This document shows positions 452 through 42,203 of a stretch of 64,000 nucleotides of DNA, piece by piece (within the stretch, counting starts at the first letter, position 1; each line of letters starts with the position of its first letter). The translations under genes were made by a program, and so were the position numbers. Origin of the DNA: Escherichia coli (GTDB taxonomy: Bacteria; Pseudomonadota; Gammaproteobacteria; Enterobacterales; Enterobacteriaceae); the NCBI RefSeq assembly GCF_050920415.1, contig NZ_CP169309.1; one strand, given 5' to 3'. The notes beneath the pieces were generated by a model. The model ran no database searches and had not been told where the DNA came from. It saw only the letters and a program-made list of their open reading frames with translations.

Positions 452-1123
452 TCAATAAACAGGTTGAATTAACTCCGCTCCCTGGTTTTTGACATTACCT
501 ACCGCGCGCGACACAGGGTGCCAGGTGAACTGGTTTGCTGGCACACAGCCACTGGTAGCGATTTCTGAGGCTTCTTTACCGCTAATCTCTTGCCGCATCC
601 ATTCCCGCGCAGTTTCTGGCGACAGTACCAGCGGGCGGCGGTCATGAATATCTACCAGGCCCTGGTCTGCTGCTGCAGTGACAATTAAAAATCCTTCGGC
701 CTCGTCACCGCGCTCAAACGGTGTGCTACCTATCGCGGCCATAAAAACAGGTTGTCCATCAGCGCGATAGATAAAATAAGGCTGTTTTTTGTCGCCTTCT
801 TTTTTCCACTCAAACCAGCCATCGGCAAAACAGATTGCCCGACCATGTTGCCAGAGCGGTTTAAACATACGACTGGTTGCCGCAGTTTCTACGCGGGCGT
901 TAATCAGCGGCGGTTTATCCCACCATCCGGGAGCATATCCCCAGAAAACCGGATCCAGATGAAGGTGTTCATCACGTTCACTGAGCAGAAGAACTTTGGT
1001 TCCCGGCGCGACGTTGTATCTGCCAATGGGTTCGGGATCGTAGGGAATATCGCGTTCAATATCTTCCGCGAGAAGCGCAAGGTAATCTTCACGCGTTTGG
1101 GATTGGGCAAAGCGTCCACACAT
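452..1123 (-). CDS. yedK: SOS response-associated peptidase YedK (abasic-site processing)
   Basis: 223 aa ORF starting MCGRFAQ (N-terminal Cys nucleophile); recognised sequence and synteny. Confidence 0.9.
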   Translation of the reverse strand: MCGRFAQSQTREDYLALLAEDIERDIPYDPEPIGRYNVAPGTKVLLLSERDEHLHLDPVFWGYAPGWWDKPPLINARVETAATSRMFKPLWQHGRAICFADGWFEWKKEGDKKQPYFIYRADGQPVFMAAIGSTPFERGDEAEGFLIVTAAADQGLVDIHDRRPLVLSPETAREWMRQEISGKEASEIATSGCVPANQFTWHPVSRAVGNVKNQGAELIQPVY

Positions 1124-1231
1124 AGCAACCTCCTGAGATCACCCTGAAAAGAATAGGAGAGGGGGCGGGTAAAATCTATATGATACAGAGACAACGATGT
1201 TCCCGCTGTGGGACACAGCGGGAAGGAGGGA

Positions 1232-1465
1232 TTATTTCTGAATTAAATAACGAATGGTCGGCCCGTCTTGCTGAATATCCAGCACCGTATAGCCGTGATT
1301 ACGCGCATCCAGTGGAATATTATTGATCGACTGCGGACAGTCGCTCACCACTTCCAGGATCTCACCTTTTTTTAATTGCGGCATCGCCTCAAGGGTTGCA
1401 ACTGCCGGATAAGGGCAGGGTTCACCCACCATATCAAGGCGGTAATCAGGAACGATATTTTTCAT
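1232..1465 (-). CDS. yedF: TusA-like sulfurtransferase-family protein YedF
   Basis: 77 aa ORF with CPYP motif; overlaps yedE start as in E. coli. Confidence 0.85.
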   Translation of the reverse strand: MKNIVPDYRLDMVGEPCPYPAVATLEAMPQLKKGEILEVVSDCPQSINNIPLDARNHGYTVLDIQQDGPTIRYLIQK

Positions 1466-2667
1466 GCGATCTCCTTAGCTGTCTGCGGTGCCGCATGGCG
1501 GAAGAAGCGTTTTTCCCAGCCGATAATCAACATCAGCGCAGCAAACAGCAGCAAATATGTCACCAGCAGGCCACCCATCGGGCCAAAGGTTTTCAGGAGG
1601 TTGATTTTGTCCCAGTCGGTGGCCAGCGCCGGAGCGAAATCATCCCAGTAATACGCCAGAATCGTTGAGCCGATCACATTGCCCAGACCGACCCACCAGT
1701 AGTGCACCTGGCCTTCTACCGCGCGGTACATCCAGCCGGTTTCGCAGCCGCCTGCCAGCACGATGCCAAATCCAAACAGCAAACCACCAATTACCGCGTT
1801 TGGTCCTGCCCACATGATTTTGGGTTCAACGCCTAACTGTACGTAACTTAAGATCCCGATGGCACTTACCGCCATACCGATAATGATTGCTTTCGCCATG
1901 TGGGTACGTCCGGTGATCCACATATCGCGGAACGCCGAAGTAAAGCAGATTTGCGCACGTTCAATCAGTAAACCAAAGCCGACGCCAAACAGCATTGCCA
2001 GCCCCAGTTTTGGTTGGTTCATCGCCGTCAGCAGCGCCCAGCCCAGCATGCCGAAAAAGACCAGCATCCCGAGACGAAAACGACGCCGCGCCTGATCCGG
2101 TTTTTGCGTCAGCGGTGAGGCGGCAGAAACTTTCTGCATTTTCACGGGAATACGGAAGATGGGCAGCAGGGTAAAGCGCGCGCCAAACCATGAACCAATG
2201 GCAGTGGCGATGGCAAAGAACCAGGCATGCAGCGAGAACTGAGGAATGCCGGTAAAGAACGCCGCCAGGTTACAGCCCATTGCCAGACGCGCGCCAAAAC
2301 CGGCGATAATGCCGCCAATGATGGCCTGCATAATGCGGATACGGCTGCGCGGCATGCGCAGTTTGACATTGTTGGCCCACAGCGCTGCAGCAAAGCAGCC
2401 GCCAAACATACCGAGGATCATCATTCCGTCGATGCGGGTTAATGGCGATCCTTCCAGATGAATAATTTTAAAATAACCCCACTCTTCAGCATGGACGCCA
2501 AACAGCTGCAAAAGCTGACCGCCCCAACGGGTAAATTCACCCGTGACTGCCCAAAAGGTGCCAGTGATGCCAAAATAGTAAGTGGAGAGAATACCCGCCG
2601 CGATGACCGCGGGGATGGGCGCCCAGAATTTAATCAACCAGGCGTGTTTGAATTGCTGCCATGACAT
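1462..2667 (-). CDS. yedE: Inner-membrane selenium/thiosulfate transporter-family protein YedE
   Basis: 401 aa highly hydrophobic ORF; synteny with yedF. Confidence 0.9.
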   Translation of the reverse strand: MSWQQFKHAWLIKFWAPIPAVIAAGILSTYYFGITGTFWAVTGEFTRWGGQLLQLFGVHAEEWGYFKIIHLEGSPLTRIDGMMILGMFGGCFAAALWANNVKLRMPRSRIRIMQAIIGGIIAGFGARLAMGCNLAAFFTGIPQFSLHAWFFAIATAIGSWFGARFTLLPIFRIPVKMQKVSAASPLTQKPDQARRRFRLGMLVFFGMLGWALLTAMNQPKLGLAMLFGVGFGLLIERAQICFTSAFRDMWITGRTHMAKAIIIGMAVSAIGILSYVQLGVEPKIMWAGPNAVIGGLLFGFGIVLAGGCETGWMYRAVEGQVHYWWVGLGNVIGSTILAYYWDDFAPALATDWDKINLLKTFGPMGGLLVTYLLLFAALMLIIGWEKRFFRHAAPQTAKEIA

Positions 2668-2850
2668 GAATGTAGCCTCTGAACTCAGAAGGTTTGAAAC
2701 AAGAGTCGCGAATCATACATCAAACAAATTTATTTTCGGGGTAATAATTCACAAAAATAATAGTTAGATCAAATTTCTCTCTGAACCTGGAAAGGCTGGC
2801 GACATCAGGGCTTTAATGCCACAATCCTCTTTTCTTCTCATGCAGGACGA

Positions 2851-3267
2851 ATGATGAAAAAACTCGCAATTGCAGGCGCGCTCATGTTGCTGGCGGGCTG
2901 TGCCGAAGTCGAAAACTATAACAATGTCGTTAAAACCCCCGCGCCGGACTGGCTGGCGGGCTACTGGCAGACCAAAGGGCCGCAAAGTGCGCTGGTCAGT
3001 CCGGAAGCGATAGGCAGCCTGATTGTCACTAAAGAGGGCGATACCCTCGATTGCCGTCAGTGGCAGCGGGTGATTGCTGTGCCGGGTAAGTTGACATTGA
3101 TGTCTGATGATCTCACTAACGTTACCGTAAAACGTGAGCTGTACGAGGTTGAGCGTGAAGGTAACACCATTGAGTACGATGGAATGACGATGGAGCGTGT
3201 GGATCGTCCGACGGCAGAGTGTGCCGCTGCGCTGGATAAAGCGCCGTTACCGACGCCATTGCCGTAA
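2851..3267 (+). CDS. yedD: Lipoprotein YedD
   Basis: 138 aa ORF with lipoprotein signal (LLAGC). Confidence 0.8.
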   Translation: MMKKLAIAGALMLLAGCAEVENYNNVVKTPAPDWLAGYWQTKGPQSALVSPEAIGSLIVTKEGDTLDCRQWQRVIAVPGKLTLMSDDLTNVTVKRELYEVEREGNTIEYDGMTMERVDRPTAECAAALDKAPLPTPLP

Positions 3268-3300
3268 TGAAATCTCCCCGGCTTGCCGCCGGGGATGAAT

Positions 3301-4788
3301 TTAAATCACCTCTTCGATAACCCACACGCTGACGCTGCCGCCGTTGCAAAAGAAGGTCGCTTCGCCGTTTTCGTCGGTTACTACACTTTCTTGCCGGTTC
3401 CCCAGAAAATCACGCCAGGTTTTATTGCCGTAATTCTCTCCTAAATGAATGGTTTTTTCGCCATCATCTCCGTTCGACATGACCACCACGCAGCCGGGAT
3501 ATTCGTCGGTGCCACTGCGGCTAAAGGCAATGCAGTTCGGATGGTCGAAAAATAACGTCTGTACACCGTGGGCGAAACGCTGACGGGCGAGAATTAATTC
3601 ATCAAGTTGTTCGATTATTGGCATATCTATCGGATAGGTTTGCCCGTCACCACCGACATCTTCGTAATGTGCACCGTAGAGATCCGGATAGAACACCGAA
3701 GGAACGCCATTTTCCCGCAACAAAATTAGGGCGTACGCCAGCGGTTTAAACCACGGTTCGACCGGCGCTTCGAGGGCTTGCAACGGTTGGGTGTCGTGGT
3801 TGGCAACGAGGGTTACGGCGTGAAAAGGATCGGCTTCCACAAGCGTCCCAGTGAAAATCTGCGTCATGTCGTAGTCGCGTCCCATGCGCGATGCTTCATG
3901 GAATTTCATCTGCAGCGGCGCATCGAACAGCATGGTTTTGCCTTCCACCTGATCAATATACGTTTGCAGCTTATCAACTTCATGCGACCAGTATTCCGCC
4001 ACAATAAACAGCGGCTTTGGCGCAACTTCCTGTACGTGTTCGATCCACTCTTTATAAAACCACGCCGGAATATGTTTGACCGCATCAAGACGAAAACCGT
4101 CGCATTGCGTTTGTTCCATCACCCAGCGCGCCCAGTATTTAATCTCTTCCGTCACGGCATGATTGCGAAAATCGATATTCTCGCCCATCAGGTAATCGAA
4201 ATTACCGAGTTCATCATCAACCTGATCGTTCCAGCCTTCGCCGGTGTAGTCGTTAACAATTTTAAAAATGCCATCTTCATCAGGATTTTCGATATGGTCG
4301 ATACCGCTAAAACATTTGAAATCCCAGATAAACTGTGAGTATTGCCCGGCACGGGCGGGGAAGGTGTAACGCGTCCAGCCTTCGCATTCAATGATTTCTT
4401 CATCAATTTGCGTACGGTCGTCAGCATTAACGCGCTGCACGCGAATAGCTTCTTTTTCATCCGCGCCCATTTTGTGATTGACTACCACGTCCAGCAGCAC
4501 CGCAATGTCATTACGTTTCAGGGCGTCAATGGCGGCCAGCAGTTGTGCTTTATCGCCATATTTAGTAGGGATGCTGCCTTTCTGATCAAACTCGCCTAAA
4601 TCAAATAAATCATAGGAGTCGTAGCCGACCGAATACCCGCCCGATGCGCCTTTATAGGCGGGCGGCAACCAGACCATATTGATACCAATATCATTAAAAC
4701 CGTCGGCGCGCTCGGCCAGTTCAGGCCAGAGCTTACCGCCTTCCGGGTAATACCAGTGAAAACATTGTAACAGCGTGGGATTACGCAT
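3301..4788 (-). CDS. amyA: Cytoplasmic alpha-amylase
   Basis: 495 aa ORF with glycoside hydrolase family 13 motifs; no signal peptide. Confidence 0.9.
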
Positions 4789-4865
4789 TCTTCGACTCCA
4801 TTCAAGGGGAACATTAGAAGCGTAGCCGTAATCGGATTATTCGCGAGCCATCGGCTCGTTAAGAT

Positions 4866-5231
4866 TCAAAAGAGGTTATCCTGCGGAGCCAGCACAAAGC
4901 CGCCCTGATCGCCATAGGCACTTAACACCGATTTTTGCACTGATGACTGACCGACCAGTTTCGCCAGTTCATCCATCCGAATCTGCAATAACTGCTTTAC
5001 CCTGCTTTCGTTGTCGAGAATCAGGCGCAGCATCGGGCGGAGTTGCTCCTGCATCGTGGTGGACGGATCAATCTCTTCAGTCAGATGTGCAATCTCCTGC
5101 ACCGCATTCACATACGCCATTTCGCTGGCGATGAGTTCGTCCCATTGTTCTTCCGTTGCCAGGCGTAACATGAGCTGGCTTTTTTCGACGAGTTGTTGCC
5201 AGGCGAAATACAAATGCGGTGCATGGTTCAT
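4866..5231 (-). CDS. fliT: Flagellar export chaperone / FlhDC antagonist FliT
   Basis: 121 aa ORF, last gene of fliDST. Confidence 0.85.
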
Positions 5232-5641
5232 CAGACTGGGTCCTGAATCAAAGAAGGGGAGAGTAAAGACTCTTTCCAGGCATCGGCAATATTGCGCATT
5301 AATGCTTCCACTTCTTCGACTGCGGAGACATCGTTGCGTAAATTGGCTTGCAGCAAGCGCCTGACCATATAGCTATAAAGAGCAATCAAGTTTTGGGTTA
5401 GTTCGTCTTTGCTCTCTTCATCAAGACTCACCTGCAGCCCGTTCTCAATGATGTTGATCGCTTTTGACAAAGAGACGCCTTTGCCTTGCTGATTGTTGTC
5501 CTGCATAAACAGGCGCGCTCTAACCAGTGCGCTCAGCACTCCATCAAATAGCATGGTGACCAGCTGCTGCTGGCTGGCGCTCATTACGGCGCTTTCGACG
5601 CCAATTTGTGCATAGGCCTGGGTGCCTTTTGCCGCGTACAT
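5231..5641 (-). CDS. fliS: Flagellin-specific chaperone FliS
   Basis: 136 aa ORF; synteny. Confidence 0.9.
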
Positions 5642-5656
5642 AGTTTCTCCTGAAGA

Positions 5657-7072
5657 TTATTTCGAGTTGCTATTTGAGGTGTCGAACTGCTGTGTCAGAT
5701 AGCTACTGGTGGAGTTAAGCGAGTTCATTAACACATCTAATTGGGTGAACTGGGCTTTATAGCGCGTCATTAAGGTATCGATACGCTCACTGGCTGCGTT
5801 GTACTGGTCGGTCAAATTATTCAGCGTTTTGCTGACGCCATCTTTTGCGGCCTGGATTATCCCGGTGGAAGAGAGCCAACTGGTTAGGTTGCTACTAATG
5901 CCGGTGGTTACCCCTGTACTTTTACCGTCACCTATAAACATTTCACCGATGCCAGTGGCATCTTTTTTTAGCGCCGTTTGCAGTTTGTCGGTCGCGATTT
6001 CCAGCTTGCCGGTACTGGCATCGCTGGTAATGCCAATCTGTGCCAGCGTTTTATAGTTTGAACTGCTGTGAGTATTGGCGAGCAAGGTTTTAAGCTGAGT
6101 CTGGATGGTACGCAGTGTGGAGTCACCGAGTAATGCGCCATTGCTGGAGTCCTGACTCTCTGCTCCGGCATCGACAGCGGTGTATTTGGTTAAGCTGCTG
6201 AACGTATCCTGCAATGAGTTATAGGCATCCACCCACGCTTTAACCGCATTTTCAGCTTTGGATGTGTCTTTACTGATGGTCAGTGTCTGATTACCGGTGG
6301 TGACGTCATTCAGGTTGAGGGTGATATCTTCCAGCGCGTCGCTGATAGTGTTACTACTGTTTTCAATCTCAACGTTATTGACTGTCAGTTTGGCGTTTTG
6401 CGCAGTGACGCTTTCAATCATGCCATTGCTGCTATCACCCGACGTTCCGTTGTAACCCATAAAACTTTCCAGGGCGCTGTCGCCGCTGACGCTAAGATTC
6501 ATAGCGTTATCGCTGCCCGTATCGTTAGCGGTGATGGACAGACGATATTCGCCGTTTCCCACATTGATGATACTGGCGCTGACACCAGCTTTGGCGTTGT
6601 TAATGGCATCGCGAATGCCGGAAAGTGACGAGTTACCCGCGCTGATATCAATCGTGACCGGATCTTTACCGCCGCCTTGTTGGATGGTCAGTACGCTATC
6701 GCTGGTGGCGATGGCGGCTTTACTGTCTTTTTGACTATTTTTTGTTGTCAGCGTCTGTGCCTGCGCCAGTTGGCTAACGCTAATGGTGTATTTCCCGGCA
6801 ATCGCGCTGCCCGTGGTGGTGGCGCTGAAAGCCGATGAACTGCTGGTGGTTGAGGTGGCGGTAAATAAATCGGCTTTATTCAGTGCTGTGTTGGCTGTCT
6901 GGAAACTCTCTAGTGCACTTTTCAGCGTCCCGTAGGCGCTCAGTTTCGCGGTGTAAGAGCTTTGCTGTTTTGATATCGGCGTCAGGGTAGATTTTTCTGC
7001 CGCCTCCAGACTGTCAAGGATGCTGCTTAAGTCCAGCCCCGACCCAACCCCAAGCGTTGAAATACTAGCCAT
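5657..7072 (-). CDS. fliD: Flagellar filament cap protein FliD
   Basis: 471 aa ORF with conserved FliD termini. Confidence 0.9.
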   Translation of the reverse strand: MASISTLGVGSGLDLSSILDSLEAAEKSTLTPISKQQSSYTAKLSAYGTLKSALESFQTANTALNKADLFTATSTTSSSSAFSATTTGSAIAGKYTISVSQLAQAQTLTTKNSQKDSKAAIATSDSVLTIQQGGGKDPVTIDISAGNSSLSGIRDAINNAKAGVSASIINVGNGEYRLSITANDTGSDNAMNLSVSGDSALESFMGYNGTSGDSSNGMIESVTAQNAKLTVNNVEIENSSNTISDALEDITLNLNDVTTGNQTLTISKDTSKAENAVKAWVDAYNSLQDTFSSLTKYTAVDAGAESQDSSNGALLGDSTLRTIQTQLKTLLANTHSSSNYKTLAQIGITSDASTGKLEIATDKLQTALKKDATGIGEMFIGDGKSTGVTTGISSNLTSWLSSTGIIQAAKDGVSKTLNNLTDQYNAASERIDTLMTRYKAQFTQLDVLMNSLNSTSSYLTQQFDTSNSNSK

Positions 7073-7114
7073 ATAAATTCCTTAATCATGCGACGTATAG
7101 AACGAATACCGGGG

Positions 7115-7141
7115 TTATCGGCGTAAGCGGGGCAAAGTTTA
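7115..7141 (-). promoter_or_regulatory. Sigma-28 (FliA) promoter for fliDST
   Basis: Minus strand reads TAAACTTT-N11-GCCGATAA, matching consensus TAAAGTTT-N11-GCCGATAA. Confidence 0.6.
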
Positions 7142-7214
7142 CGATTTATTTTTTGGCTTAATGACACGAACAGCAACGAGGAAGGGGAGTATTTCGACCG
7201 CTAGAAAAAAATTC

Positions 7215-7241
7215 TAAAGGTTGTGAGTGACCAGACGATAA
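7215..7241 (+). promoter_or_regulatory. Sigma-28 (FliA) promoter for fliC
   Basis: TAAAGGTT-N11-GACGATAA about 75 bp upstream of fliC start. Confidence 0.6.
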
Positions 7242-7317
7242 CAGGGTTGACGGCGACGAAGCCGAAGGGTGGAAGCCCAATACTTAAACCGTAGACTTGA
7301 AAACAGGAAAATGAATC

Positions 7318-8649
7318 ATGGCACAAGTCATTAATACCAACAGCCTCTCGCTGATCACTCAGAACAACATCAACAAAAACCAGTCTGCGCTGTCGACTTC
7401 TATCGAGCGCCTCTCTTCTGGTCTGCGCATTAACAGCGCTAAAGATGACGCTGCGGGCCAGGCGATTGCTAACCGCTTCACTTCTAACATCAAAGGTCTG
7501 ACTCAGGCCGCACGTAACGCCAACGACGGTATCTCTCTGGCGCAGACCACTGAAGGCGCACTGTCTGAAATCAACAACAACTTGCAGCGTGTTCGTGAAC
7601 TGACCGTTCAGGCCACTACCGGTACTAACTCTGATTCTGACCTATCTTCAATCCAGGACGAAATCAAATCCCGTCTCGATGAAATTGACCGCGTATCCGG
7701 TCAGACTCAGTTCAACGGCGTTAATGTTCTTTCCAAAGATGGTTCAATGAAAATTCAGGTTGGTGCGAATGATGGTCAAACTATCTCCATCGATCTGAAG
7801 AAAATTGATTCTTCAACTTTGGGGCTGAATGGCTTCTCAGTTTCTAAAAACTCTCTTAATGTCAGCAATGCTATCACATCTATCCCGCAAGACGCTGGCG
7901 ATAAACCTGTTGATGTTAACTTTGGTACTACTACTGAGTCTGCAGCAATTGCAGCTAAATTGGGTGTATCCGATACGTCAAGCCTGTCGCTGCACAACAT
8001 TCTTGATAAAGATGGTAAGGCAACAGCTGATTATGTTGTTCAGTCAGGTAAAGACTTCTATGCTGCTTCTGTTGATGCCGCTTCAGGTAAAGTAACCTTA
8101 AACACCATTAATGTTACTTATGATGATTATGCGAACGGTGTTGACGATGCCAAGCAAACAGGTCAGCTGATCAAAGTTTCAGCAGATAAAGACGGCGCAG
8201 CTCAAGGTTTCGTCACACTTCAAGGCAAAAACTATTCTGCTGGTGATGCGGCAGTCATTCTTAAGAATGGAGCAACAAGTCTTGAGTTAACTGATCTGAA
8301 TTTAAGTGATGTTACTGATACTAATGGTAAGGTAACCACAACTGCGACTGAGCAATTTGAAGGTGCTTCAACTGAGGATCCGCTGGCGCTTCTGGATAAA
8401 GCTATTGCATCAGTCGACAAATTCCGGTCTTCTCTAGGTGCCGTGCAGAACCGTCTCGATTCCGCTATCACCAACCTGAACAACACCACCACCAACCTGT
8501 CTGAAGCGCAGTCCCGTATTCAGGACGCCGACTATGCGACCGAAGTGTCCAACATGTCGAAAGCGCAGATTATTCAGCAGGCAGGCAACTCCGTGCTGTC
8601 TAAAGCGAACCAGGTACCGCAGCAAGTTCTGTCACTGTTACAAGGCTAA
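7318..8649 (+). CDS. fliC: Flagellin (short 443 aa H-antigen variant)
   Basis: Conserved flagellin N- and C-terminal domains with a divergent central region; shorter than K-12 FliC. Confidence 0.95.
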   Translation: MAQVINTNSLSLITQNNINKNQSALSTSIERLSSGLRINSAKDDAAGQAIANRFTSNIKGLTQAARNANDGISLAQTTEGALSEINNNLQRVRELTVQATTGTNSDSDLSSIQDEIKSRLDEIDRVSGQTQFNGVNVLSKDGSMKIQVGANDGQTISIDLKKIDSSTLGLNGFSVSKNSLNVSNAITSIPQDAGDKPVDVNFGTTTESAAIAAKLGVSDTSSLSLHNILDKDGKATADYVVQSGKDFYAASVDAASGKVTLNTINVTYDDYANGVDDAKQTGQLIKVSADKDGAAQGFVTLQGKNYSAGDAAVILKNGATSLELTDLNLSDVTDTNGKVTTTATEQFEGASTEDPLALLDKAIASVDKFRSSLGAVQNRLDSAITNLNNTTTNLSEAQSRIQDADYATEVSNMSKAQIIQQAGNSVLSKANQVPQQVLSLLQG

Positions 8650-8666
8650 TGGCCTTAACCTGCCTG

Positions 8667-8690
8667 ACCCCGCCACCGGCGGGGTTTTTT
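8667..8690 (+). terminator. Rho-independent terminator after fliC
   Basis: GC hairpin CCCCGCC..GGCGGGG followed by a T-run. Confidence 0.6.
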
Positions 8691-8812
8691 CTGTCCGCAA
8701 TTTACTGGTAACCCCCAAATAACCCCTCATTTCACCCACTAATCGTCCGATTAAAAACCCTGCAGAAACGGATAATCATGCCGATAACTCATATAACGCA
8801 GGGCTGTTTATC

Positions 8813-9532
8813 GTGAATTCACTCTATACCGCTGAAGGTGTAATGGATAAACACTCGCTGTGGCAGCGTTATGTCCCGCTGGTGCGTCACGAAGCATTGC
8901 GCCTGCAGGTTCGACTGCCCGCGAGCGTGGAACTTGACGATCTGCTACAGGCGGGCGGCATTGGGTTACTTAATGCCGTCGAACGCTATGACGCCCTACA
9001 AGGAACGGCATTTACAACTTACGCAGTGCAGCGTATCCGTGGCGCTATGCTGGATGAACTTCGCAGCCGTGACTGGGTGCCGCGCAGCGTGCGACGCAAC
9101 GCGCGTGAAGTGGCACAGGCAATAGGGCAACTGGAGCAGGAACTTGGCCGCAACGCCACGGAAACTGAGGTAGCGGAACGTTTAGGGATCGATATTGCCG
9201 ACTATCGCCAAATGTTGCTCGACACCAATAACAGCCAGCTCTTCTCCTACGATGAGTGGCGCGAAGAGCACGGCGATAGTATCGAACTGGTTACTGATGA
9301 TCATCAGCGAGAAAACCCGCTACAACAACTGCTGGACAGTAATCTGCGCCAGCGGGTGATGGAAGCTATCGAAACGTTGCCGGAGCGCGAAAAACTGGTA
9401 TTAACCCTCTATTACCAGGAAGAGCTGAATCTCAAAGAGATTGGTGCGGTGCTGGAGGTCGGGGAATCGCGGGTCAGTCAGTTACATAGTCAGGCCATTA
9501 AACGGTTACGCACTAAACTGGGTAAGTTATAA
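8813..9532 (+). CDS. fliA: Flagellar sigma factor sigma-28
   Basis: 239 aa ORF with sigma-70 family regions 2 and 4. Confidence 0.95.
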   Translation: MNSLYTAEGVMDKHSLWQRYVPLVRHEALRLQVRLPASVELDDLLQAGGIGLLNAVERYDALQGTAFTTYAVQRIRGAMLDELRSRDWVPRSVRRNAREVAQAIGQLEQELGRNATETEVAERLGIDIADYRQMLLDTNNSQLFSYDEWREEHGDSIELVTDDHQRENPLQQLLDSNLRQRVMEAIETLPEREKLVLTLYYQEELNLKEIGAVLEVGESRVSQLHSQAIKRLRTKLGKL

Positions 9533-9577
9533 CGTCAGTAAATGCCGCACTTTAATTTTGACTACCGGGAGTTCTTA

Positions 9578-10129
9578 ATGATGGTGCAGCACCTGAAAAG
9601 ACGGCCATTAAGCCGCTATCTTAAAGACTTTAAACACAGCCAGACCCATTGCGCGCATTGCCGTAAATTACTCGATCGCATTACCCTCGTTCGCGACGGC
9701 AAAATAGTGAATAAAATCGAGATTTCCCGCCTGGACACGCTGCTTGATGAAAATGGCTGGCAAGTGGAACAAAAATCATGGGCGGCATTGTGCCGATTCT
9801 GCGGTGATTTACATTGCAAAACACAGAGTGATTTTTTCGATATTATCGGCTTTAAGCAATTTCTTTTTGAGCAAACTGAAATGAGCCCAGGTACGGTGCG
9901 TGAATATGTCGTTCGTCTGCGCCGTTTGGGTAATCATCTTCACGAGCAAAATATTTCCCTCGATCAGCTGCAGGACGGTTTCCTTGATGAAATCCTCGCC
10001 CCGTGGCTGCCCACTACCAGCACCAACAATTACCGCATTGCGTTACGGAAGTATCAACACTATCAGCGTCAAACGTGTACCGGACTTGTGCAGAAATCCA
10101 CCAGCCTGCCTGCTTCTGATATATATTAA
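9578..10129 (+). CDS. fliZ: Regulator FliZ
   Basis: Start trimmed to MMVQHLKRR to give the 183 aa length I recall for FliZ; follows fliA. Confidence 0.8.
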   Translation: MMVQHLKRRPLSRYLKDFKHSQTHCAHCRKLLDRITLVRDGKIVNKIEISRLDTLLDENGWQVEQKSWAALCRFCGDLHCKTQSDFFDIIGFKQFLFEQTEMSPGTVREYVVRLRRLGNHLHEQNISLDQLQDGFLDEILAPWLPTTSTNNYRIALRKYQHYQRQTCTGLVQKSTSLPASDIY

Positions 10130-10216
10130 ATAAGAATAAGATGTAGCGGAGTTGTTTTTGTGTTTACAAACAATGGCTCTACACTGCAAACAGACATAAC
10201 AACATTCGGGGTGAAT

Positions 10217-12108
<1,892 letters not shown>

Positions 12109-12122
12109 CTCCGGAAACGCTC

Positions 12123-12791
12123 ATGCAAGAAAGTATACAACTGGTTATTGATTCCTTGCCGTTCCTGCTGAAAGGGGCTGGGTATACGCTGCAACTCAGT
12201 ATCGGCGGCATGTTTTTTGGCTTACTGCTAGGGTTTATTCTCGCGCTGATGCGCCTGTCGCCAATCTGGCCCGTGCGCTGGCTGGCGCGTTTTTATATCT
12301 CTATTTTTCGTGGTACGCCACTCATCGCACAATTGTTTATGATCTATTACGGCTTGCCGCAGTTTGGCATCGAACTAGATCCCATTCCGTCAGCAATGAT
12401 TGGTCTGTCGCTAAACACTGCCGCCTATGCTGCCGAAACGCTGCGCGCCGCCATTTCTTCTATTGATAAAGGTCAGTGGGAAGCTGCTGCCAGTATTGGT
12501 ATGACGCCGTGGCAGACCATGCGTCGCGCGATTTTGCCACAGGCGGCGCGGGTGGCGTTGCCGCCGCTGTCGAACAGCTTTATCAGCCTGGTAAAAGATA
12601 CATCGCTGGCCGCGACAATCCAGGTGCCGGAGCTGTTCCGTCAGGCGCAGTTGATTACCTCGCGTACGCTGGAGGTGTTCACCATGTATCTGGCGGCTTC
12701 GCTCATCTACTGGATCATGGCGACAGTGTTATCGACGTTGCAGAACCATTTTGAGAATCAACTTAATCGCCAGGAGAGAGAACCAAAATGA
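12123..12791 (+). CDS. tcyL: Cystine ABC transporter permease TcyL (YecS)
   Basis: 222 aa hydrophobic ORF with ABC permease motif. Confidence 0.9.
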   Translation: MQESIQLVIDSLPFLLKGAGYTLQLSIGGMFFGLLLGFILALMRLSPIWPVRWLARFYISIFRGTPLIAQLFMIYYGLPQFGIELDPIPSAMIGLSLNTAAYAAETLRAAISSIDKGQWEAAASIGMTPWQTMRRAILPQAARVALPPLSNSFISLVKDTSLAATIQVPELFRQAQLITSRTLEVFTMYLAASLIYWIMATVLSTLQNHFENQLNRQEREPK

Positions 12792-13540
12792 GTGCCATTG
12801 AAGTTAAGAACCTGGTGAAAAAATTCCACGGTCAGACGGTGCTGCACGGTATCGACCTTGAGGTGAAGCCTGGCGAAGTAGTGGCAATTATCGGTCCGAG
12901 TGGTTCCGGCAAAACCACGTTGCTACGCAGCATAAATCTGCTGGAACAACCGGAAGTGGGAACCATCACCGTTGGCGATATCACCATTGATACTGCACGT
13001 TCATTAAGTCAGCAAAAATCGCTGATTCGCCAGTTGCGTCAGCACGTCGGGTTTGTCTTCCAGAACTTTAATTTGTTTCCGCATCGTACGGTGCTGGAAA
13101 ACATTATTGAAGGGCCGGTGATCGTCAAAGGCGAACCGAAAGAAGAGGCCACGGCGCGTGCTCGCGAGCTGTTGGCGAAAGTTGGGCTGGCAGGTAAAGA
13201 AACCAGCTATCCACGTCGTTTGTCTGGCGGTCAACAGCAGCGTGTCGCGATTGCGCGAGCGCTGGCTATGCGTCCTGAGGTGATTTTGTTTGACGAGCCA
13301 ACGTCGGCGCTGGATCCAGAGCTGGTGGGCGAAGTCCTGAACACCATCCGTCAGCTGGCGCAGGAAAAGCGCACGATGGTGATTGTGACGCACGAAATGA
13401 GCTTTGCCCGGGATGTTGCGGACCGGGCGATCTTTATGGACCAGGGGCGGATAGTCGAGCAGGGGGCCGCAAAAGCGTTATTTGCCGATCCTCAGCAGCC
13501 TCGCACTCGCCAGTTTCTCGAGAAGTTTCTGCTGCAATAA
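12788..13540 (+). CDS. tcyN: Cystine ABC transporter ATP-binding protein TcyN (YecC)
   Basis: 250 aa ORF with Walker A GPSGSGKTT and ABC signature LSGGQQQR. Confidence 0.9.
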   Translation: MSAIEVKNLVKKFHGQTVLHGIDLEVKPGEVVAIIGPSGSGKTTLLRSINLLEQPEVGTITVGDITIDTARSLSQQKSLIRQLRQHVGFVFQNFNLFPHRTVLENIIEGPVIVKGEPKEEATARARELLAKVGLAGKETSYPRRLSGGQQQRVAIARALAMRPEVILFDEPTSALDPELVGEVLNTIRQLAQEKRTMVIVTHEMSFARDVADRAIFMDQGRIVEQGAAKALFADPQQPRTRQFLEKFLLQ

Positions 13541-13769
13541 TAAGAAAAAATCAGCCCAGACGGCGCTCTTGTCGGGGCTGAACGCCATTTCAAGTGTGAT
13601 AAAAGTGCTTAATGAATCAGCCTAACTCATTAATAACATAAGAGAATGTGATGTCTTGCAAAAGTACTTTATTACCTGAATAATATAATTTATATATAAA
13701 TCTTATTTATGTGATAGTTTGAATTATCATTATAAATGATACTCACTCTCAGGGGCGTTGCGGTTTACT

Positions 13770-14492
13770 ATGCAGGATACGGATTTTTTCAGCTGGCGTC
13801 GCACGATGCTGTTGCGTTTTCAGAGGATGGAGGCCGCAGAAGAGGTCTACCATGAAATCGAGCTTCAGGCTCAGCAGCTGGAGTACGATTACTATTCGTT
13901 ATGTGTTCGCCACCCGGTACCATTCACGCGACCTAAAGTAGCTTTCTACACCAATTACCCTGAGTCGTGGGTGAGTTATTATCAGGCAAAAAACTTTCTC
14001 GCCATTGATCCTGTGCTGAACCCTGAAAACTTTAGTCAGGGCCATTTAATGTGGAATGATGACTTATTCAGCGAAGCACAGCCGTTATGGGAAGCCGCGC
14101 GCGCACACGGTTTACGCCGTGGTGTCACCCAGTATTTAATGCTGCCAAACCGGGCGCTGGGCTTTTTGTCCTTTTCCCGTTGCAGCGCGCGCGAAATACC
14201 CATTCTTAGTGATGAACTGCAATTAAAAATGCAGTTACTGGTGCGCGAAAGTCTGATGGCTCTGATGCGTTTAAATGATGAAATAGTGATGACGCCAGAG
14301 ATGAATTTCAGCAAGCGCGAAAAAGAAATTCTGAAATGGACGGCGGAAGGGAAGACATCAGCAGAGATAGCGATGATTTTGTCAATCTCTGAGAATACGG
14401 TCAATTTCCATCAGAAAAACATGCAGAAAAAAATCAATGCACCGAATAAGACCCAGGTTGCCTGTTACGCGGCCGCTACTGGCTTAATTTGA
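13770..14492 (+). CDS. sdiA: LuxR-family quorum-sensing regulator SdiA
   Basis: Start trimmed to MQDTDFFSW (240 aa); C-terminal LuxR-type HTH. Confidence 0.9.
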   Translation: MQDTDFFSWRRTMLLRFQRMEAAEEVYHEIELQAQQLEYDYYSLCVRHPVPFTRPKVAFYTNYPESWVSYYQAKNFLAIDPVLNPENFSQGHLMWNDDLFSEAQPLWEAARAHGLRRGVTQYLMLPNRALGFLSFSRCSAREIPILSDELQLKMQLLVRESLMALMRLNDEIVMTPEMNFSKREKEILKWTAEGKTSAEIAMILSISENTVNFHQKNMQKKINAPNKTQVACYAAATGLI

Positions 14493-14520
14493 TCGCTTTT
14501 CTTTCTGCGTGCCAGATGCA

Positions 14521-14555
14521 AAAACCGGCTGAAAGGCACGCTCTCAGCCGGTTTT
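14521..14555. terminator. Bidirectional terminator between sdiA and yecF
   Basis: Hairpin AACCGGCTGA..TCAGCCGGTT flanked by A-run and T-run. Confidence 0.6.
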
Positions 14556-14558
14556 ATA

Positions 14559-14783
14559 TTACTGACGGTAGGCTTGTTTAATTTGCTTAACCGTTTTGGA
14601 AAATACAGCAGCCTGGGTTTCGTCTTCGATCAGCGCAAGCTGTTTTTCCATCTTTAACATCACGCGGCCCGCGTCAGCTTGTCCCATCGCCTGCAGCATC
14701 AGCGTCAGCATCGCTTTCAGGCAGGAGACTTCATTTGCCAGTTCTTGATTATTCTCGGCAGTAGAAAAATCAGGCGTACTCAT
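14559..14783 (-). CDS. yecF: Small protein YecF
   Basis: 74 aa ORF; synteny. Confidence 0.8.
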
Positions 14784-15241
14784 TTATTTTCCTCGTCATG
14801 TTGCAATGAAAATTTGCGGTGAAAAATGTTAAGGCGGCGGAGTATACCATAAGCTTTGCTAAAAATAGCAGTGGTTGTTTTTTGAGCGTGCCGTCAACGG
14901 TGCTATTAAATGCGTTAATATAATGACCAATAAATATTTTTATCATGAATGTTTTTTGCCCGTATTGTTCGGGTTAATTAATGTTACATATTCAGCGGGC
15001 TGATTTTCATTTTTGCTGAATAAAGGTAATTTTTGTCACATTTCGTCGCAGGGCTTACTGTGAAACGATCCGGTAAGCCGTTGGTGACGGGCGTGACCAT
15101 AACTGTGGACAATCGAATTGACAAAAACGAGAGAAAAATCGAATACCCACCATTTTTAACGTTTCAAAGTTGCAATAAAAACCGCTAATATACGAATGAC
15201 TAACTATCAGTAGCGTTATCCCTATTTCTGGAGATATTCCT

Positions 15242-15898
15242 TTGATCAACGTTCTACTTGTTGATGACCACGAACTGGTGCGCGCAGGGATACGACGCAT
15301 TCTGGAAGATATAAAGGGTATAAAAGTCGTTGGTGAGGCATCGTGCGGTGAAGACGCCGTTAAGTGGTGCCGGGCAAATGCCGTTGACGTGGTGCTAATG
15401 GACATGAGTATGCCGGGCATTGGCGGTCTTGAGGCGACGCGTAAAATCGCGCGTTCCACAGCTGATGTAAAAATCATCATGCTTACGGTCCATACAGAAA
15501 ACCCTTTACCAGCGAAAGTCATGCAGGCCGGTGCTGCTGGCTACCTCAGCAAAGGCGCGGCTCCGCAGGAAGTCGTGAGTGCGATTCGTTCTGTTTATTC
15601 TGGACAGCGTTACATTGCTTCTGACATCGCTCAACAAATGGCGTTAAGCCAGATCGAACCAGAAAAAACAGAAAGCCCATTTGCCAGTTTGTCTGAACGT
15701 GAATTGCAGATTATGCTGATGATCACCAAGGGCCAGAAGGTCAATGAGATCTCAGAACAGCTCAATCTCAGTCCGAAAACGGTGAACAGCTACCGCTATC
15801 GTATGTTCAGTAAACTAAACATTCATGGCGATGTTGAGCTGACTCACCTGGCAATTCGCCATGGTCTGTGTAATGCGGAGACATTATCAAGTCAGTGA
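15242..15898 (+). CDS. uvrY: Response regulator UvrY
   Basis: 218 aa ORF with receiver domain and LuxR-type HTH. Confidence 0.95.
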
Positions 15899-17727
15899 GT
15901 GATCAGTTTGACGCAAAAGCGTTTTTAAAAACCGTAACCAGCCAGCCAGGCGTTTATCGCATGTACGATGCTGGTGGTACGGTTATCTATGTCGGCAAAG
16001 CGAAAGACCTGAAAAAACGGCTTTCCAGCTATTTCCGTAGCAACCTCGCTTCGCGCAAAACCGAAGCGCTGGTCGCCCAGATCCAGCAAATTGATGTAAC
16101 GGTTACTCATACAGAAACCGAAGCGCTGTTGCTGGAACACAACTACATCAAACTCTATCAGCCGCGTTATAACGTTTTGCTACGCGATGATAAATCTTAT
16201 CCTTTTATCTTCCTGAGTGGCGATACCCACCCGCGTCTGGCGATGCATCGTGGTGCGAAGCATGCCAAAGGTGAATATTTCGGCCCGTTCCCGAATGGCT
16301 ATGCCGTACGTGAAACACTGGCGTTACTGCAAAAGATATTCCCCATTCGCCAGTGCGAAAATAGTGTTTATCGCAATCGCTCGCGTCCGTGTCTGCAATA
16401 TCAGATAGGGCGCTGTCTGGGACCGTGCGTTGAAGGACTGGTGAGTGAAGAAGAATACGCTCAGCAGGTCGAGTATGTGCGCCTGTTTTTGTCTGGCAAA
16501 GATGATCAGGTGCTTACGCAACTCATTAGCCGTATGGAAACTGCCAGCCAGAATCTGGAGTTTGAAGAAGCGGCACGTATTCGCGACCAAATTCAGGCGG
16601 TGCGACGCGTCACCGAAAAACAGTTTGTGTCCAATACCGGCGACGACCTTGACGTTATTGGTGTGGCGTTCGATGCGGGCATGGCTTGTGTCCACGTATT
16701 GTTCATTCGTCAGGGTAAAGTGCTCGGCAGCCGCAGCTATTTCCCGAAAGTGCCGGGCGGTACGGAACTGAGCGAGGTGGTGGAAACCTTCGTAGGTCAG
16801 TTCTATTTACAAGGCAGCCAGATGCGCACCTTACCGGGTGAGATCCTGCTCGATTTTAATCTTAGCGATAAAACGCTGCTCGCCGATTCCCTTTCAGAAC
16901 TGGCGGGACGCAAGATTAATGTTCAAACCAAACCTCGCGGCGATCGGGCGCGTTATCTGAAACTCGCGCGCACCAATGCGGCGACGGCCTTAACCAGCAA
17001 ACTTTCGCAGCAATCTACCGTTCACCAGCGACTGACCGCGCTTGCCAGCGTGTTGAAATTGCCGGAAGTGAAGCGGATGGAGTGCTTTGACATCAGCCAT
17101 ACCATGGGTGAACAAACCGTCGCCTCCTGTGTGGTATTTGATGCTAACGGCCCGCTGCGTGCGGAGTATCGGCGCTATAACATTACTGGCATTACGCCGG
17201 GCGATGATTATGCGGCGATGAATCAGGTGCTGCGTCGGCGTTATGGTAAAGCCATCGACGACAGTAAGATCCCGGATGTGATCCTTATCGACGGCGGCAA
17301 AGGCCAGCTTGCACAGGCGAAAAATGTCTTCGCCGAACTGGATGTCTCATGGGATAAAAATCATCCGCTGCTACTTGGCGTTGCCAAAGGAGCAGATAGG
17401 AAGGCTGGGTTGGAAACGCTGTTCTTTGAGCCGGAAGGTGAGGGATTCAGTTTGCCGCCAGATTCTCCCGCGCTGCATGTTATCCAACATATTCGCGACG
17501 AATCACACGATCACGCGATTGGCGGGCACCGCAAAAAACGGGCGAAGGTCAAAAATACCAGTTCCCTGGAAGCCATTGAAGGCGTCGGGCCAAAACGTCG
17601 GCAAATGTTGTTGAAATATATGGGCGGTTTGCAAGGTTTACGTAACGCCAGCGTCGAGGAAATTGCAAAAGTGCCGGGTATTTCGCAAGGTCTGGCAGAA
17701 AAGATCTTCTGGTCGTTGAAACATTGA
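15895..17727 (+). CDS. uvrC: Excinuclease ABC subunit C
   Basis: 610 aa ORF with GIY-YIG N-terminus ([13 protein letters not shown]). Confidence 0.95.
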
Positions 17728-17783
17728 TGTCTCTGTAGCAACATAGGGGTAATCTTACTGACAACAGATAGTTACCCGTCATT

Positions 17784-18332
17784 ATGCAATTTAATATCCC
17801 TACGTTGCTTACACTGTTCCGTGTCATCCTTATCCCATTCTTTGTATTGGTCTTTTATCTGCCTGTCACCTGGTCGCCGTTTGCCGCCGCGCTCATTTTC
17901 TGCGTCGCGGCGGTGACTGACTGGTTCGATGGTTTTCTGGCACGCCGCTGGAACCAGAGTACCCGGTTTGGTGCTTTCCTTGACCCTGTAGCAGATAAAG
18001 TTCTCGTGGCTATCGCCATGGTGCTGGTAACCGAGCATTATCACAGCTGGTGGGTGACATTACCGGCGGCAACGATGATCGCCCGTGAAATTATTATTTC
18101 TGCGCTACGCGAATGGATGGCAGAGTTGGGTAAACGCAGTAGCGTGGCTGTCTCCTGGATTGGGAAAGTGAAAACCACTGCCCAGATGGTAGCGCTGGCC
18201 TGGCTGCTGTGGCGTCCGAACATTTGGGTTGAGTACGCCGGTATTGCACTTTTCTTTGTGGCTGCGGTACTGACTCTGTGGTCAATGTTGCAATATTTGA
18301 GCGCTGCGCGTGCAGATTTGCTTGATCAGTGA
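17784..18332 (+). CDS. pgsA: CDP-diacylglycerol--glycerol-3-phosphate 3-phosphatidyltransferase
   Basis: 182 aa membrane ORF with CDP-alcohol phosphatidyltransferase motif. Confidence 0.95.
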
Positions 18333-18483
18333 TCGTTTCGGCGCAATTTTCAGCAAACGATCAAAAGTGGTGAAAAATATCGTTGACTCATCGCGCCAGG
18401 TAAGTAGAATGCAACGCATCGAACGGCGGCACTGATTGCCAGACGATAATAAAATCAAGTGATTAACTGATTGCTTGATGAAT

Positions 18484-18559
<76 letters not shown>

Positions 18560-18612
18560 GTTTAAAAGACATCGGCTTCAGCGGATGTCCGGCTGAAAGG
18601 CCTGAAGAATTT

Positions 18613-18686
18613 GGCGCGTTAACAAAGCGGTTATGTAGCGGATTGCAAATCCGTCTAGTCCGGTTCGACTCCGGAACGCGCCTCCA
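18613..18686 (+). tRNA. cysT: tRNA-Cys (GCA)
   Basis: 74 nt GGCGCGTTAACAAAG...CGCCTCCA, anticodon GCA. Confidence 0.95.
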
Positions 18687-18698
18687 CTTTCTTCCCGA

Positions 18699-18785
18699 GC
18701 CCGGATGGTGGAATCGGTAGACACAAGGGATTTAAAATCCCTCGGCGTTCGCGCTGTGCGGGTTCAAGTCCCGCTCCGGGTACCA
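18699..18785 (+). tRNA. leuZ: tRNA-Leu (TAA)
   Basis: 87 nt GCCCGGATGGTGGAATCGG...GGGTACCA, anticodon TAA; 3' two thirds lie in the prophage att repeat. Confidence 0.95.
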
Positions 18786-18855
18786 TGGGAAAGATAAGAA
18801 TAAAATCAAAGCAATAAGCAGTGTCGTGAAACCACCTTCGGGTGGTTTTTTTGTA
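18731..18855. repeat. attL: 125-bp direct repeat (3' 55 nt of tRNA-Leu plus the tRNA-operon terminator)
   Basis: Identical to 53671..53795. Confidence 0.9.
18829..18853 (+). terminator. glyW-cysT-leuZ operon terminator
   Basis: Hairpin ACCACC-TTCG-GGTGGT followed by TTTTTTT; duplicated at 53769..53793 inside attR. Confidence 0.7.
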
Positions 18856-37338: not shown

Positions 37339-38391
37339 TTAGCTGTCGGCGAACTTCAGGCCAGTGACCATCGCGCACTTGCCATAGTCTTCAACGACAT
37401 AAGCGTCATTGATGGACTGGTAGGTGGCGATGCGGTTGTATTCCGGTTCGTCTTTCATCAGACGACGCATTGAACCTTTCTGCCAGTAAATCGACAGGTT
37501 GTTGAACGAGGTGATCAGCATCGTTGAATCCGGGAAGAACGGCGCAAGGAACACGCCCAGCCCGCCAATGGTGCGCGATGACAGAATGAGCTGCCCGGCG
37601 AGTAATTCCGCATTGGGATTCTGGCCGCTGATGCTGTTCAGCACGGGCAGACGCAGCGAGTTAAACAGGTTGCGCCCCATAATCACCACGAGGTCGTCAG
37701 CTTCCTTGTGCCATTCATCCAGCAGGGATGAGCGCGCGTCCTGTACCAGTGCATCAGCGTTCGCATACTTACCCGCGTGCGCCACGGTGTTGTCCATGTT
37801 ACGGGAGGTCAGCGTCACGTCATTCATAACGCGTTCGCTGGCGTCGGTTCTGATGTGCTCCAGCCAGCCCACGTTAACGTCCTGAAGCAACTTGTTGGTG
37901 CTGAAGTTAGACTCATCCGCGTGAGACGTGCCGTTGAAACCGATCATGATGCGGTCAAGTGCCACCTGTCGGGCAATCTGTGCGCTGATGCGGGACTGAA
38001 AATCAGGGTGTGCCGCCCAGGCATCAAGCTGCGGATATGAAATAAACGTGTCGTAGTTCACCTGTTCGCACTGGTATTTGCGGTTTTTCAGATCAACCAC
38101 GTTATTCGGGTTACGGCGTTTTGTGCCGTCATAACTGGTATTCGTGCGCGCAATCGGCCCGGTGGTATCCGGGAGGATTTTTTCGCCTTTCTGGTCGGTC
38201 ACGCCGATCACGTTAATTCTTTTTGTAAATTCGGTGCTTTCCTTTGAGGCGTTTTCAAAACGCTGCTGTACCGAGGGTTCCACGGTAAATCGCGATACCA
38301 GTGCGGAAACCGGGATATTGTTAAGCGACGCCTGCTGCGCCATATAGCAACCCAGCTTGTTGCGGGTAATATCTGACATCACCAGATTCAT
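37339..38391 (-). CDS. Major capsid protein gpN-like
   Basis: 350 aa, position and size. Confidence 0.9.
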   Translation of the reverse strand: MNLVMSDITRNKLGCYMAQQASLNNIPVSALVSRFTVEPSVQQRFENASKESTEFTKRINVIGVTDQKGEKILPDTTGPIARTNTSYDGTKRRNPNNVVDLKNRKYQCEQVNYDTFISYPQLDAWAAHPDFQSRISAQIARQVALDRIMIGFNGTSHADESNFSTNKLLQDVNVGWLEHIRTDASERVMNDVTLTSRNMDNTVAHAGKYANADALVQDARSSLLDEWHKEADDLVVIMGRNLFNSLRLPVLNSISGQNPNAELLAGQLILSSRTIGGLGVFLAPFFPDSTMLITSFNNLSIYWQKGSMRRLMKDEPEYNRIATYQSINDAYVVEDYGKCAMVTGLKFADS

Positions 38392-38414
38392 AAAAAATTT
38401 GCTCCTTTGTCTTA

Positions 38415-39284
38415 TCAGAAGTCAGCCAGCTGGTCGGAGGCTGCGCCCGTTGCGGTGAACCGGTTCTGCGGATCGCCGTCCTGCGTGCGCAGTTTTTCCT
38501 TCAGTGCTGCCAGCTCTGTGGTCAGTGAAGTGATTTTCTGGCTGTCCTGCTGATGGCGGGTTTCCAGTGCATTAAAACGGTCGATAATGTCGGCCTGTGA
38601 CGTTGCGACGCCTTCCACCGCTTCCTGAATGCGGGAGAAACTGGCGTCATCCGCTTTGCGGCCACGGCCAATAATCCCCATTACGCGGTTAAACCACTGG
38701 GTGCCTTCTTCCTGGCGTTGTTCTGCCATTTCGATGATTTCAGACTCGATGGCTTCGGAGATAAGCGGTGCTTCACCCTGGACACTGTTGAACGTCATCA
38801 CCGCCTGACGTTGCTGTGCCGTGAATTTCAGGCGCTCAGTGCCCAGGCTTGCCGGGGTGTCGGTCATCGCCAGCCCGACCAGATAGGCGCGCCCGTTAAC
38901 GGAGAACTGCGGGTGCAGTTCGATACTGGAATAGATTTTCTTGCCGTCAGCGACAAGCTGCTTCATGCGCTCGGTCGGTTCGATTTCTGCATACAGCGCA
39001 GTACGTCCGGCCAGCGGGCCTTCCGTAATATCTTCCGTACTCAGCGCGGTGACATCGCCCATTGCGGAAAATTCGCTTGACGGGCATGGCGAGAGATAGT
39101 GCTCAACGTTCACGCGGGCAGCGTAAACATCCGGGTTGAAGTTCTCGGCGGCTTCACGCAGATGTACCGGACTGATTTCGCGGCCATCAACAGTTGATCC
39201 GGAGACAGCCACGCGAAACTTTTTGCGGGATGTCTTTTTTTCATTAGCCATAGTTTTTGCCCCTCTGACTGGTTCTTCAGTCAT
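38415..39284 (-). CDS. Capsid scaffolding protein gpO-like
   Basis: 289 aa, position upstream of capsid gene. Confidence 0.85.
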   Translation of the reverse strand: MTEEPVRGAKTMANEKKTSRKKFRVAVSGSTVDGREISPVHLREAAENFNPDVYAARVNVEHYLSPCPSSEFSAMGDVTALSTEDITEGPLAGRTALYAEIEPTERMKQLVADGKKIYSSIELHPQFSVNGRAYLVGLAMTDTPASLGTERLKFTAQQRQAVMTFNSVQGEAPLISEAIESEIIEMAEQRQEEGTQWFNRVMGIIGRGRKADDASFSRIQEAVEGVATSQADIIDRFNALETRHQQDSQKITSLTTELAALKEKLRTQDGDPQNRFTATGAASDQLADF

Positions 39285-39405
39285 GATGGCAAAGCGTAAC
39301 AGGCTGATACAAAGGGCTTTTGTTGTAAGAAAACGGCCAGAACAGGGGGTTAAGGAGAACGGTTTCGCGCGCGGGTAATCTTCCTGTAATTACTCAGGGG
39401 GAGCA

Positions 39406-41157: not shown

Positions 41158-42203
41158 TGAGCAGAAAAAATAAAAAAGTGCGCATGAGTTCACGCATTGA
41201 TCTCGCTGATGCGCTCAGGAAAGAATCATCGCTCAGTGCATTCACATTTGATGGTCCTTATCGCCTGACCGGGCATGACCTGCTGGACAATATGTACTGT
41301 GCTGATAACGGGCGGTGGTATGAAACCCCGGTGGACTGGTACGGTCTGGCAAGAGCCGCCCGGCAAACGTCCTGGCATCAGTCTGCGCTTTACTTTAAGC
41401 GCAATGTATTGCTCGGTTGCTACATCCCGCACCCGCTGCTTTCCCGGCAGGATTTCTCGGCGCTGGCGCTGGACTGGTTTGTGTTCGGTAACGCATTCCT
41501 TGAGCTTCGAAGCAATATGCTCGGCGAACCGCTTAAATTACGGCACGCCCTGGCGAAATACATGCGACGCGGAAGCGATCTTGAATCATGGTGGTATGTG
41601 CAGGATGGCAAGGATGCGTTTCAGTTTCGCCCAGGCAAAGTGTGCCACCTGATGAATCCGGACATTAACCAGGAAATCTACGGCATGCCGGAATATCTCG
41701 GCGCATTACTCTCGGCCAGCCTGTCTCATTCGGCGGACATGTTCAGAAAACTGTATTACGACAACGGATCCCACGCCGGGTGCATCATCTACATCGGTGC
41801 AGCGCAGGTAAACCGCGAAAGCATGGACTCCCTGAAAGAAACGCTACAGGGTGCGCGTGGTGGTGGTGCGTTTAAAAACGTGCTCATTCATGCGCCCAAC
41901 GGGGGCAAAGAGGGGGTGCAAATTTTGCCGTTCCAGCAGATCACCGCAAAGGATGAGTTCATGAATGTTAAGGCGGCATCCCGTGATGATGTGCTGGCTG
42001 CGCACCGCGTTCCGCCGCAACTGATGGGGGCGATGCCGGGTGAAAAAAGTGCGTTTGGTGATGTGGAGAAGGCCGCGCGGGTTTACGCAATTAACGAGCT
42101 GATGCCCGTCATGGAGGCCATGAAGCATATCAATGACTGGCTTGGCGAAGAGGTGCTCCGCTTTAACCCTTACGCACTGCTGGACACCCAGCCCACATCC
42201 TGA
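41157..42203 (+). CDS. Portal protein gpQ-like
   Basis: 348 aa directly after the terminase gene. Confidence 0.9.
   Translation: MSRKNKKVRMSSRIDLADALRKESSLSAFTFDGPYRLTGHDLLDNMYCADNGRWYETPVDWYGLARAARQTSWHQSALYFKRNVLLGCYIPHPLLSRQDFSALALDWFVFGNAFLELRSNMLGEPLKLRHALAKYMRRGSDLESWWYVQDGKDAFQFRPGKVCHLMNPDINQEIYGMPEYLGALLSASLSHSADMFRKLYYDNGSHAGCIIYIGAAQVNRESMDSLKETLQGARGGGAFKNVLIHAPNGGKEGVQILPFQQITAKDEFMNVKAASRDDVLAAHRVPPQLMGAMPGEKSAFGDVEKAARVYAINELMPVMEAMKHINDWLGEEVLRFNPYALLDTQPTS

Follow-up and report, generated by a model that had tools for sequence, protein, structure and literature searches.

The flagellin gene fliC found in a 64,000-nucleotide stretch of Escherichia coli DNA (the whole of which is referred to here as the window) raises two connected questions, namely which H type it encodes and whether it lies in an intact locus behind promoters that the flagellar sigma factor would recognize. 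A first-pass annotation of the sequence had described it as a short flagellin variant with intact sigma-28 promoters and with an H serotype different from that of K-12. These proposals were followed up by comparison with complete E. coli genomes, with published typing oligonucleotides and with known flagellin structures.

The fliC gene and its neighborhood

The plus-strand reading frame at 7318-8649 extends from an ATG start to a TAA stop over 443 codons with zero internal stops, and a Shine-Dalgarno motif (AGGA) can be read approximately 8 nt upstream of the ATG. Both the coordinates and the length of 443 aa given by the first-pass annotation proved exact. Pfam analysis identified the Flagellin_N domain (PF00669) at residues 5-140 of the product (E 1.2e-46; bit score 158.7, cut-off 26.6) and the Flagellin_C domain (PF00700) at residues 357-441 (E 7.9e-32; bit score 109.9, cut-off 23). 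The presence of both terminal domains and the location of the gene between fliDST and fliAZ identify the product as a bacterial flagellin (FliC/FljB). The features of the locus used below are the following:

4866-5231, minus strand: fliT, fliDST operon (from the annotation of the collinear region of E. coli R32_14_1F)
5231-5641, minus strand: fliS, fliDST operon (from the annotation of collinear R32_14_1F; fliS and fliT show 98-99% nucleotide identity to K-12)
5657-7072, minus strand: fliD, filament cap, 471 aa (Pfam FliD_N, Flagellin_IN and FliD_C)
7318-8649, plus strand: fliC, flagellin assigned to the H25 alleles, 1332 bp including the stop, 443 aa (from the open reading frame, Pfam and identity to H25 genes)
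7843-8376 (codons 176-353), plus strand: hypervariable, predicted surface-exposed center of H-antigen specificity, 25.8% identical to K-12 H48
8813-9532, plus strand: fliA, sigma-28, 239 aa, 164 bp downstream of fliC (Pfam Sigma70 r2, r3 and r4; 100% amino acid identity to K-12)

The gene order, amyA-fliT-fliS-fliD on the minus strand followed by fliC-fliA-fliZ-tcyJ-dcyD-tcyL-tcyN on the plus strand, is that of the canonical E. coli flagellar region III. The region is collinear with K-12 and with R32_14_1F, and its orientation is reversed relative to MG1655. Divergence from K-12 was found to be confined to fliC (63% nucleotide identity), fliD (73%) and the intergenic region between them (83%), whereas the flanking fliT, fliS, fliA and fliZ genes are 97-99% identical. 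The hypervariable block thus does not consist of fliC alone, as fliD and the intergenic region diverge together with it; the FliD protein is 80% identical to K-12 FliD (468 aa).

The fliC gene of E. coli R32_14_1F (isolated from a goat in Nebraska; protein WP_000079779.1) is 100% identical at the nucleotide level. Over positions 452-18855 (18.4 kb) the two genomes share 99.0% identity with 184 mismatches, and the window therefore represents a different strain that carries exactly the same fliC allele. The FliD proteins of the two strains differ by one residue (N192K) despite the identical fliC genes, and seven to eight residues separate the window FliD from that of other H25 strains.

Both margins of this shared segment are occupied by mobile elements. 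Similarity to R32_14_1F begins only at position 452, beside yedK, and an insQ/TnpB gene is present there in place of the 3' end of a group II intron that fills positions 1-451 of the window. The frame-2 translation of 2-364 matches the Pfam GIIM maturase domain (E 1.7e-19), and an Rfam scan at gathering thresholds reported no group II intron RNA domains at 1-451. At the other margin, an insertion of approximately 34.8 kb relative to R32_14_1F (18856-53670) lies between the two copies of a perfect 125-bp direct repeat (18731-18855 and 53671-53795), which begins inside a tRNA-Leu gene (18699-18785). Identity to Escherichia phage 520873 (P2 family, Xuanwuvirus-like) amounts to 98.8% in its capsid, terminase and portal block (37339-42203). 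The insertion is a P2-family prophage at leuZ, and its integrase is located as follows:

52563-53564: tyrosine integrase of the insertion

Sigma-28 promoters and expression of fliC

In the enterobacterial flagellar hierarchy, FlhDC activates the class 2 genes including fliA. The export of FlgM upon completion of the hook-basal body leaves sigma-28 free to transcribe fliC and fliDST, with FliS serving as the chaperone of FliC and FliD as the filament cap. As FliA is 100% identical to its K-12 counterpart, the K-12 sigma-28 consensus can be applied to the window. This consensus has been defined as TAAAGTTT-n11-GCCGATAA, and the eight sigma-28 promoters that are well characterised in K-12 include those of fliC and fliD (PMC2859248). 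The pattern TAAAGTTT-N11-GCCGATAA was searched on both strands of the 64 kb with up to three mismatches allowed, which yielded exactly two matches:

7115-7141, minus strand: putative PfliD (fliDST) sigma-28 promoter, TAAACTTT-N11-GCCGATAA, one mismatch (15/16 positions), directed toward fliD
7215-7241, plus strand: putative PfliC sigma-28 class 3 promoter, TAAAGGTT-N11-GACGATAA, two mismatches (14/16 positions), directed toward fliC

For 64 kb of uniform base composition and both strands, 0.0015 matches would be expected by chance with at most one mismatch and 0.034 with at most two. Both sites are located inside the 245-bp divergent intergenic region (7073-7317) in the correct orientation, and their boxes align column for column with those of the K-12 fliC and fliD promoters. 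The -35 and -10 boxes of K-12 PfliC are identical to those in the window, and the 11-nt spacer is equal in length but different in sequence. K-12 PfliD shares the -35 box but carries ACCGATAA at -10, where the window has the perfect consensus GCCGATAA; its 11-nt spacer also differs in sequence. The A-tract in front of the fliC -35 box is kept in the window; immediately upstream of this tract, at approximately 7204, a 19-bp segment of K-12 (ACAAAAAATGGCTGTTTTT) is missing. Four other H25 genomes showed zero to four intergenic differences each, none of which falls inside a promoter box.

The earlier statement that the divergent fliC and fliD promoters are close to the sigma-28 consensus was thereby borne out in mismatch count and in position, and the description of the sigma-28 promoters as intact is supported at the sequence level. 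A scan with the sigma-70 consensus found no sigma-70-like site in the fliD-fliC intergenic region, which is consistent with pure class 3 control. By homology with K-12, both promoters are predicted to depend on FliA, which would read PfliC and, in the opposite direction, the PfliD promoter driving fliDST.

A gene of this kind could be intact and nevertheless silent, if defects elsewhere in the flagellar regulon had rendered the strain non-motile (H-). Many carriers of fliC-H25 are indeed non-motile, as exemplified by O177:H25, for which motility was recorded in two of seven strains in Table 4 of the published survey (PMC4441469). In addition, the window does not include flhDC, the flg genes or the other fli genes; the flhDC region lies beyond its end because the prophage insertion displaces it. 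The tar and motA sigma-28 promoters, which would be expected from the layout of R32_14_1F, were likewise absent from the 64-kb window because the prophage pushes their region past the window end. On the other hand, fliT, fliS, fliD, fliC, fliA and fliZ all have their full length and neither class 3 promoter is disrupted, and silencing was therefore regarded as unlikely. Intact promoters and an intact locus do not by themselves prove motility. As to the identity of the gene, a silent fliC would be compatible with the assignment to H25 that is set out below.

Assignment of the fliC allele to H25

The H type, to which the first-pass annotation had given no name, was assigned on the basis of serotyped genomes and of published gene lengths and oligonucleotides. 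Beutin et al. 2015 give fliC-H25 as 1332 bp and 443 aa in O2, O100, O145, O165, O172 and O177:H25 strains (PMC4441469), and the reading frame in the window has exactly this length. The description of the protein as short consequently holds only in comparison with the 498 aa of K-12 FliC, as 443 aa is the usual length for H25. Other E. coli flagellins reach 548 aa (H6), 585 aa (H7) and 580 aa (H28) according to structures and papers. Six published H25 oligonucleotides, comprising the primers and probes of the generic and of the H25[O145] assay, all have exact matches in the window:

7825-7948, plus strand: fliC-H25[O145] subtype PCR target, exact matches at 7825-7850, 7862-7889 and 7923-7948 (oligonucleotides from PMC4441469)
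7993-8073, plus strand: generic fliC-H25 real-time PCR target, exact matches at 7993-8015, 8020-8048 and 8053-8073 (oligonucleotides from PMC4441469, Table 2)

The H25[O145] oligonucleotides fall at gene positions 508-533, 545-572 and 606-631, which are the positions listed in the original publication (PMC4441469).

In a megablast comparison with 5426 complete E. coli genomes, 146 matched the fliC gene over 80% or more of its length, in every case with 95-100% identity, and in the remaining approximately 4370 genomes the match was limited to the conserved fliC ends. As the center is matched only in these 146 genomes and at 95-100% identity, the sequences constitute a discrete allele family. 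Two serotyped genomes, the O145:H25 strain CFSAN004176 (NZ_CP014583) and the O165:H25 strain 2012C-4227 (CP013029) (serotypes from PMC5567499), carry fliC genes with 98.9% and 98.8% nucleotide identity to the window allele, respectively. For CFSAN004176, this corresponds to 15 nucleotide substitutions, and its protein is 99.1% identical with four substitutions. The H type was named H25 because the published length is reproduced, all primers and probes match exactly and the identity to serotyped genomes amounts to 98.8-98.9%. The gene is almost certainly a chromosomal fliC of type H25, belonging to the H25[O145]-type sub-cluster and equipped with sigma-28 promoters, and none of the observations speaks against this assignment.

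The same exact protein (WP_000079779.1) is already public in NCBI, UniRef and ENA and is represented by 90 contigs. Known H25[O145]-type alleles, such as LN555738 from the O145:H25 strain CB12641 and the gene for WP_000079778.1 (the FliC of both CFSAN004176 and MS 115-1), share the length of 1332 bp and 443 aa, the locus and the exact oligonucleotide sites. The four residues that distinguish the window protein from that of CFSAN004176 are N265D, G282D, S321G and E323A (window residue first), all of them central, and eight residues separate it from WP_000079777.1 of AR Bank #0349. All but one of these differences concern the surface-exposed center, which could be taken to indicate that the gene encodes an H antigen similar to H25 but new or different from it in serology. 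Differences of four to eight residues, however, were also reported among strains whose H25 type had all been established by serology or by PCR. According to the survey (PMC4441469), zero to eight residues separate the H25 alleles found in different serogroups, an O2:H25 variant differs from O145:H25 by four residues, and the O145:H25 alleles share 98% identity with AY250007, the sequence of the H25 type strain (HW26). The exact generic and H25[O145] oligonucleotide sites and the identity of at least 98.3% to H25 genes also argue against a distinct antigen, which was considered very improbable.

Comparison with K-12 MG1655 (fliC of type H48, b1923) illustrates how the H25 allele is built. The two genes occupy the same genomic position between the same neighbors, and their products are 93.7% identical over residues 1-175 and 94.4% over residues 354-443, which comprise the D0/D1 ends. 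Identity drops to 25.8% over residues 176-353, and the K-12 protein (498 aa) is 55 aa longer. Both the divergence of the central domain and the difference in H serotype from K-12 that the first-pass annotation had proposed are in line with this alignment, in which the center fails to match K-12 fliC as an H48 gene would. The same annotation had named a central region matching K-12 H48 as the result that would overturn its proposal; the alignment was run and showed only the 25.8% identity. A K-12-like H48 flagellin shortened by a central deletion, as the ends of approximately 94% identity and the 55 missing residues might suggest, was ruled out by this alignment as next to impossible, since the low identity spans the entire center in a way that a simple deletion does not fit and the full length of the gene matches H25 alleles at 98-100% nucleotide identity.

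On the basis of homology with K-12, the helical regions conserved at the N and C termini (D0/D1) of the 443-aa protein would build the filament core, and the divergent center, approximately residues 176-353, would be displayed on the filament surface and define the H25 antigen; filament assembly and H25 seroreactivity are both predicted in this manner. An AlphaFold model (mean pLDDT 71.5; D0 and residues 319-343 are of low confidence) contains long terminal helices and a beta-rich center between the D0/D1 helices, in which residues 180-320 reach pLDDT values of approximately 70-89. The best Foldseek matches in the PDB were enterobacterial flagellins (E 1e-27 to 1e-29), with a D3-deleted Salmonella FliC at the top; the high rmsd of 22-33 A is due to domain orientation. 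The D0/D1 sequence matches the solved filaments of E. coli K-12 (8cxm), EHEC H7 (7sn4), EPEC H6 (7sn7/7sqj) and Salmonella FliC (1ucu, 9iwq) with E values of approximately 1e-136 to 1e-139. The central 178 aa alone gave zero matches to PDB sequences in a phmmer search at E <= 0.01, and no solved structure was found for the outer domain of H25. With the center as query, a word-indexed search for homologues yielded three fragmentary matches, and an exhaustive search among 1.84 billion representative proteins returned 30 relatives with 34-59% identity in the center, several of them frameshifted or partial. These 30 sequences served only as a shallow alignment for the modelling, and such scarcity is typical for the hypervariable outer domains of flagellins.

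The 3' untranslated region and implications of the allele

Downstream of the fliC stop codon, a terminator scan detected a GC-rich hairpin followed by a T run:

8666-8691, plus strand: predicted fliC intrinsic terminator, 9-bp stem (seven GC pairs) and T run, RNA fold -20.3 kcal/mol

This hairpin, at which the fliC transcript would end, is identical to the terminator hairpin of fliC/FliX in K-12. The 3' UTR that leads to it (8650-8691) differs from K-12 in that 156 nt including both REP palindromes are missing, and only approximately 20 nt and the terminator remain. The missing 156 nt constitute most of the K-12 sigma-28-dependent sRNA FliX (b4827, 195 nt), whose active form of approximately 100 nt, FliX-S, includes a REP element (PMC10578931). 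An Rfam scan at gathering thresholds reported no family in the fliC region and three tRNAs elsewhere in the window. The short junction was present in at least 787 of the 5426 complete E. coli genomes, and the short 3' UTR is therefore a common polymorphism.

Earlier work has already described this family of H25 alleles, including its length, the variation within the type and the PCR targets, as well as the sigma-28 promoters. The relevance of the allele lies mainly in strain typing, as its sub-cluster is common to EHEC O145:H25, O165:H25 and O177:H25. Irrespective of its O group, a strain with the window allele would score positive in the 'O145-specific' fliC-H25 PCR, a point of practical use in molecular serotyping. 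Positivity in the H25[O145] PCR had already been noted for O2, O100, O165, O172 and O177 by the authors of the survey (PMC4441469). The sole point of this analysis that could feed a research question is that the fliC 3' UTR naturally lacks the body of the FliX sRNA. It is possible, although this reading of the genome sequences is put forward tentatively, that a substantial minority of E. coli may naturally lack the negative feedback that FliX exerts on flagellin and on the S10 ribosomal-protein operon.
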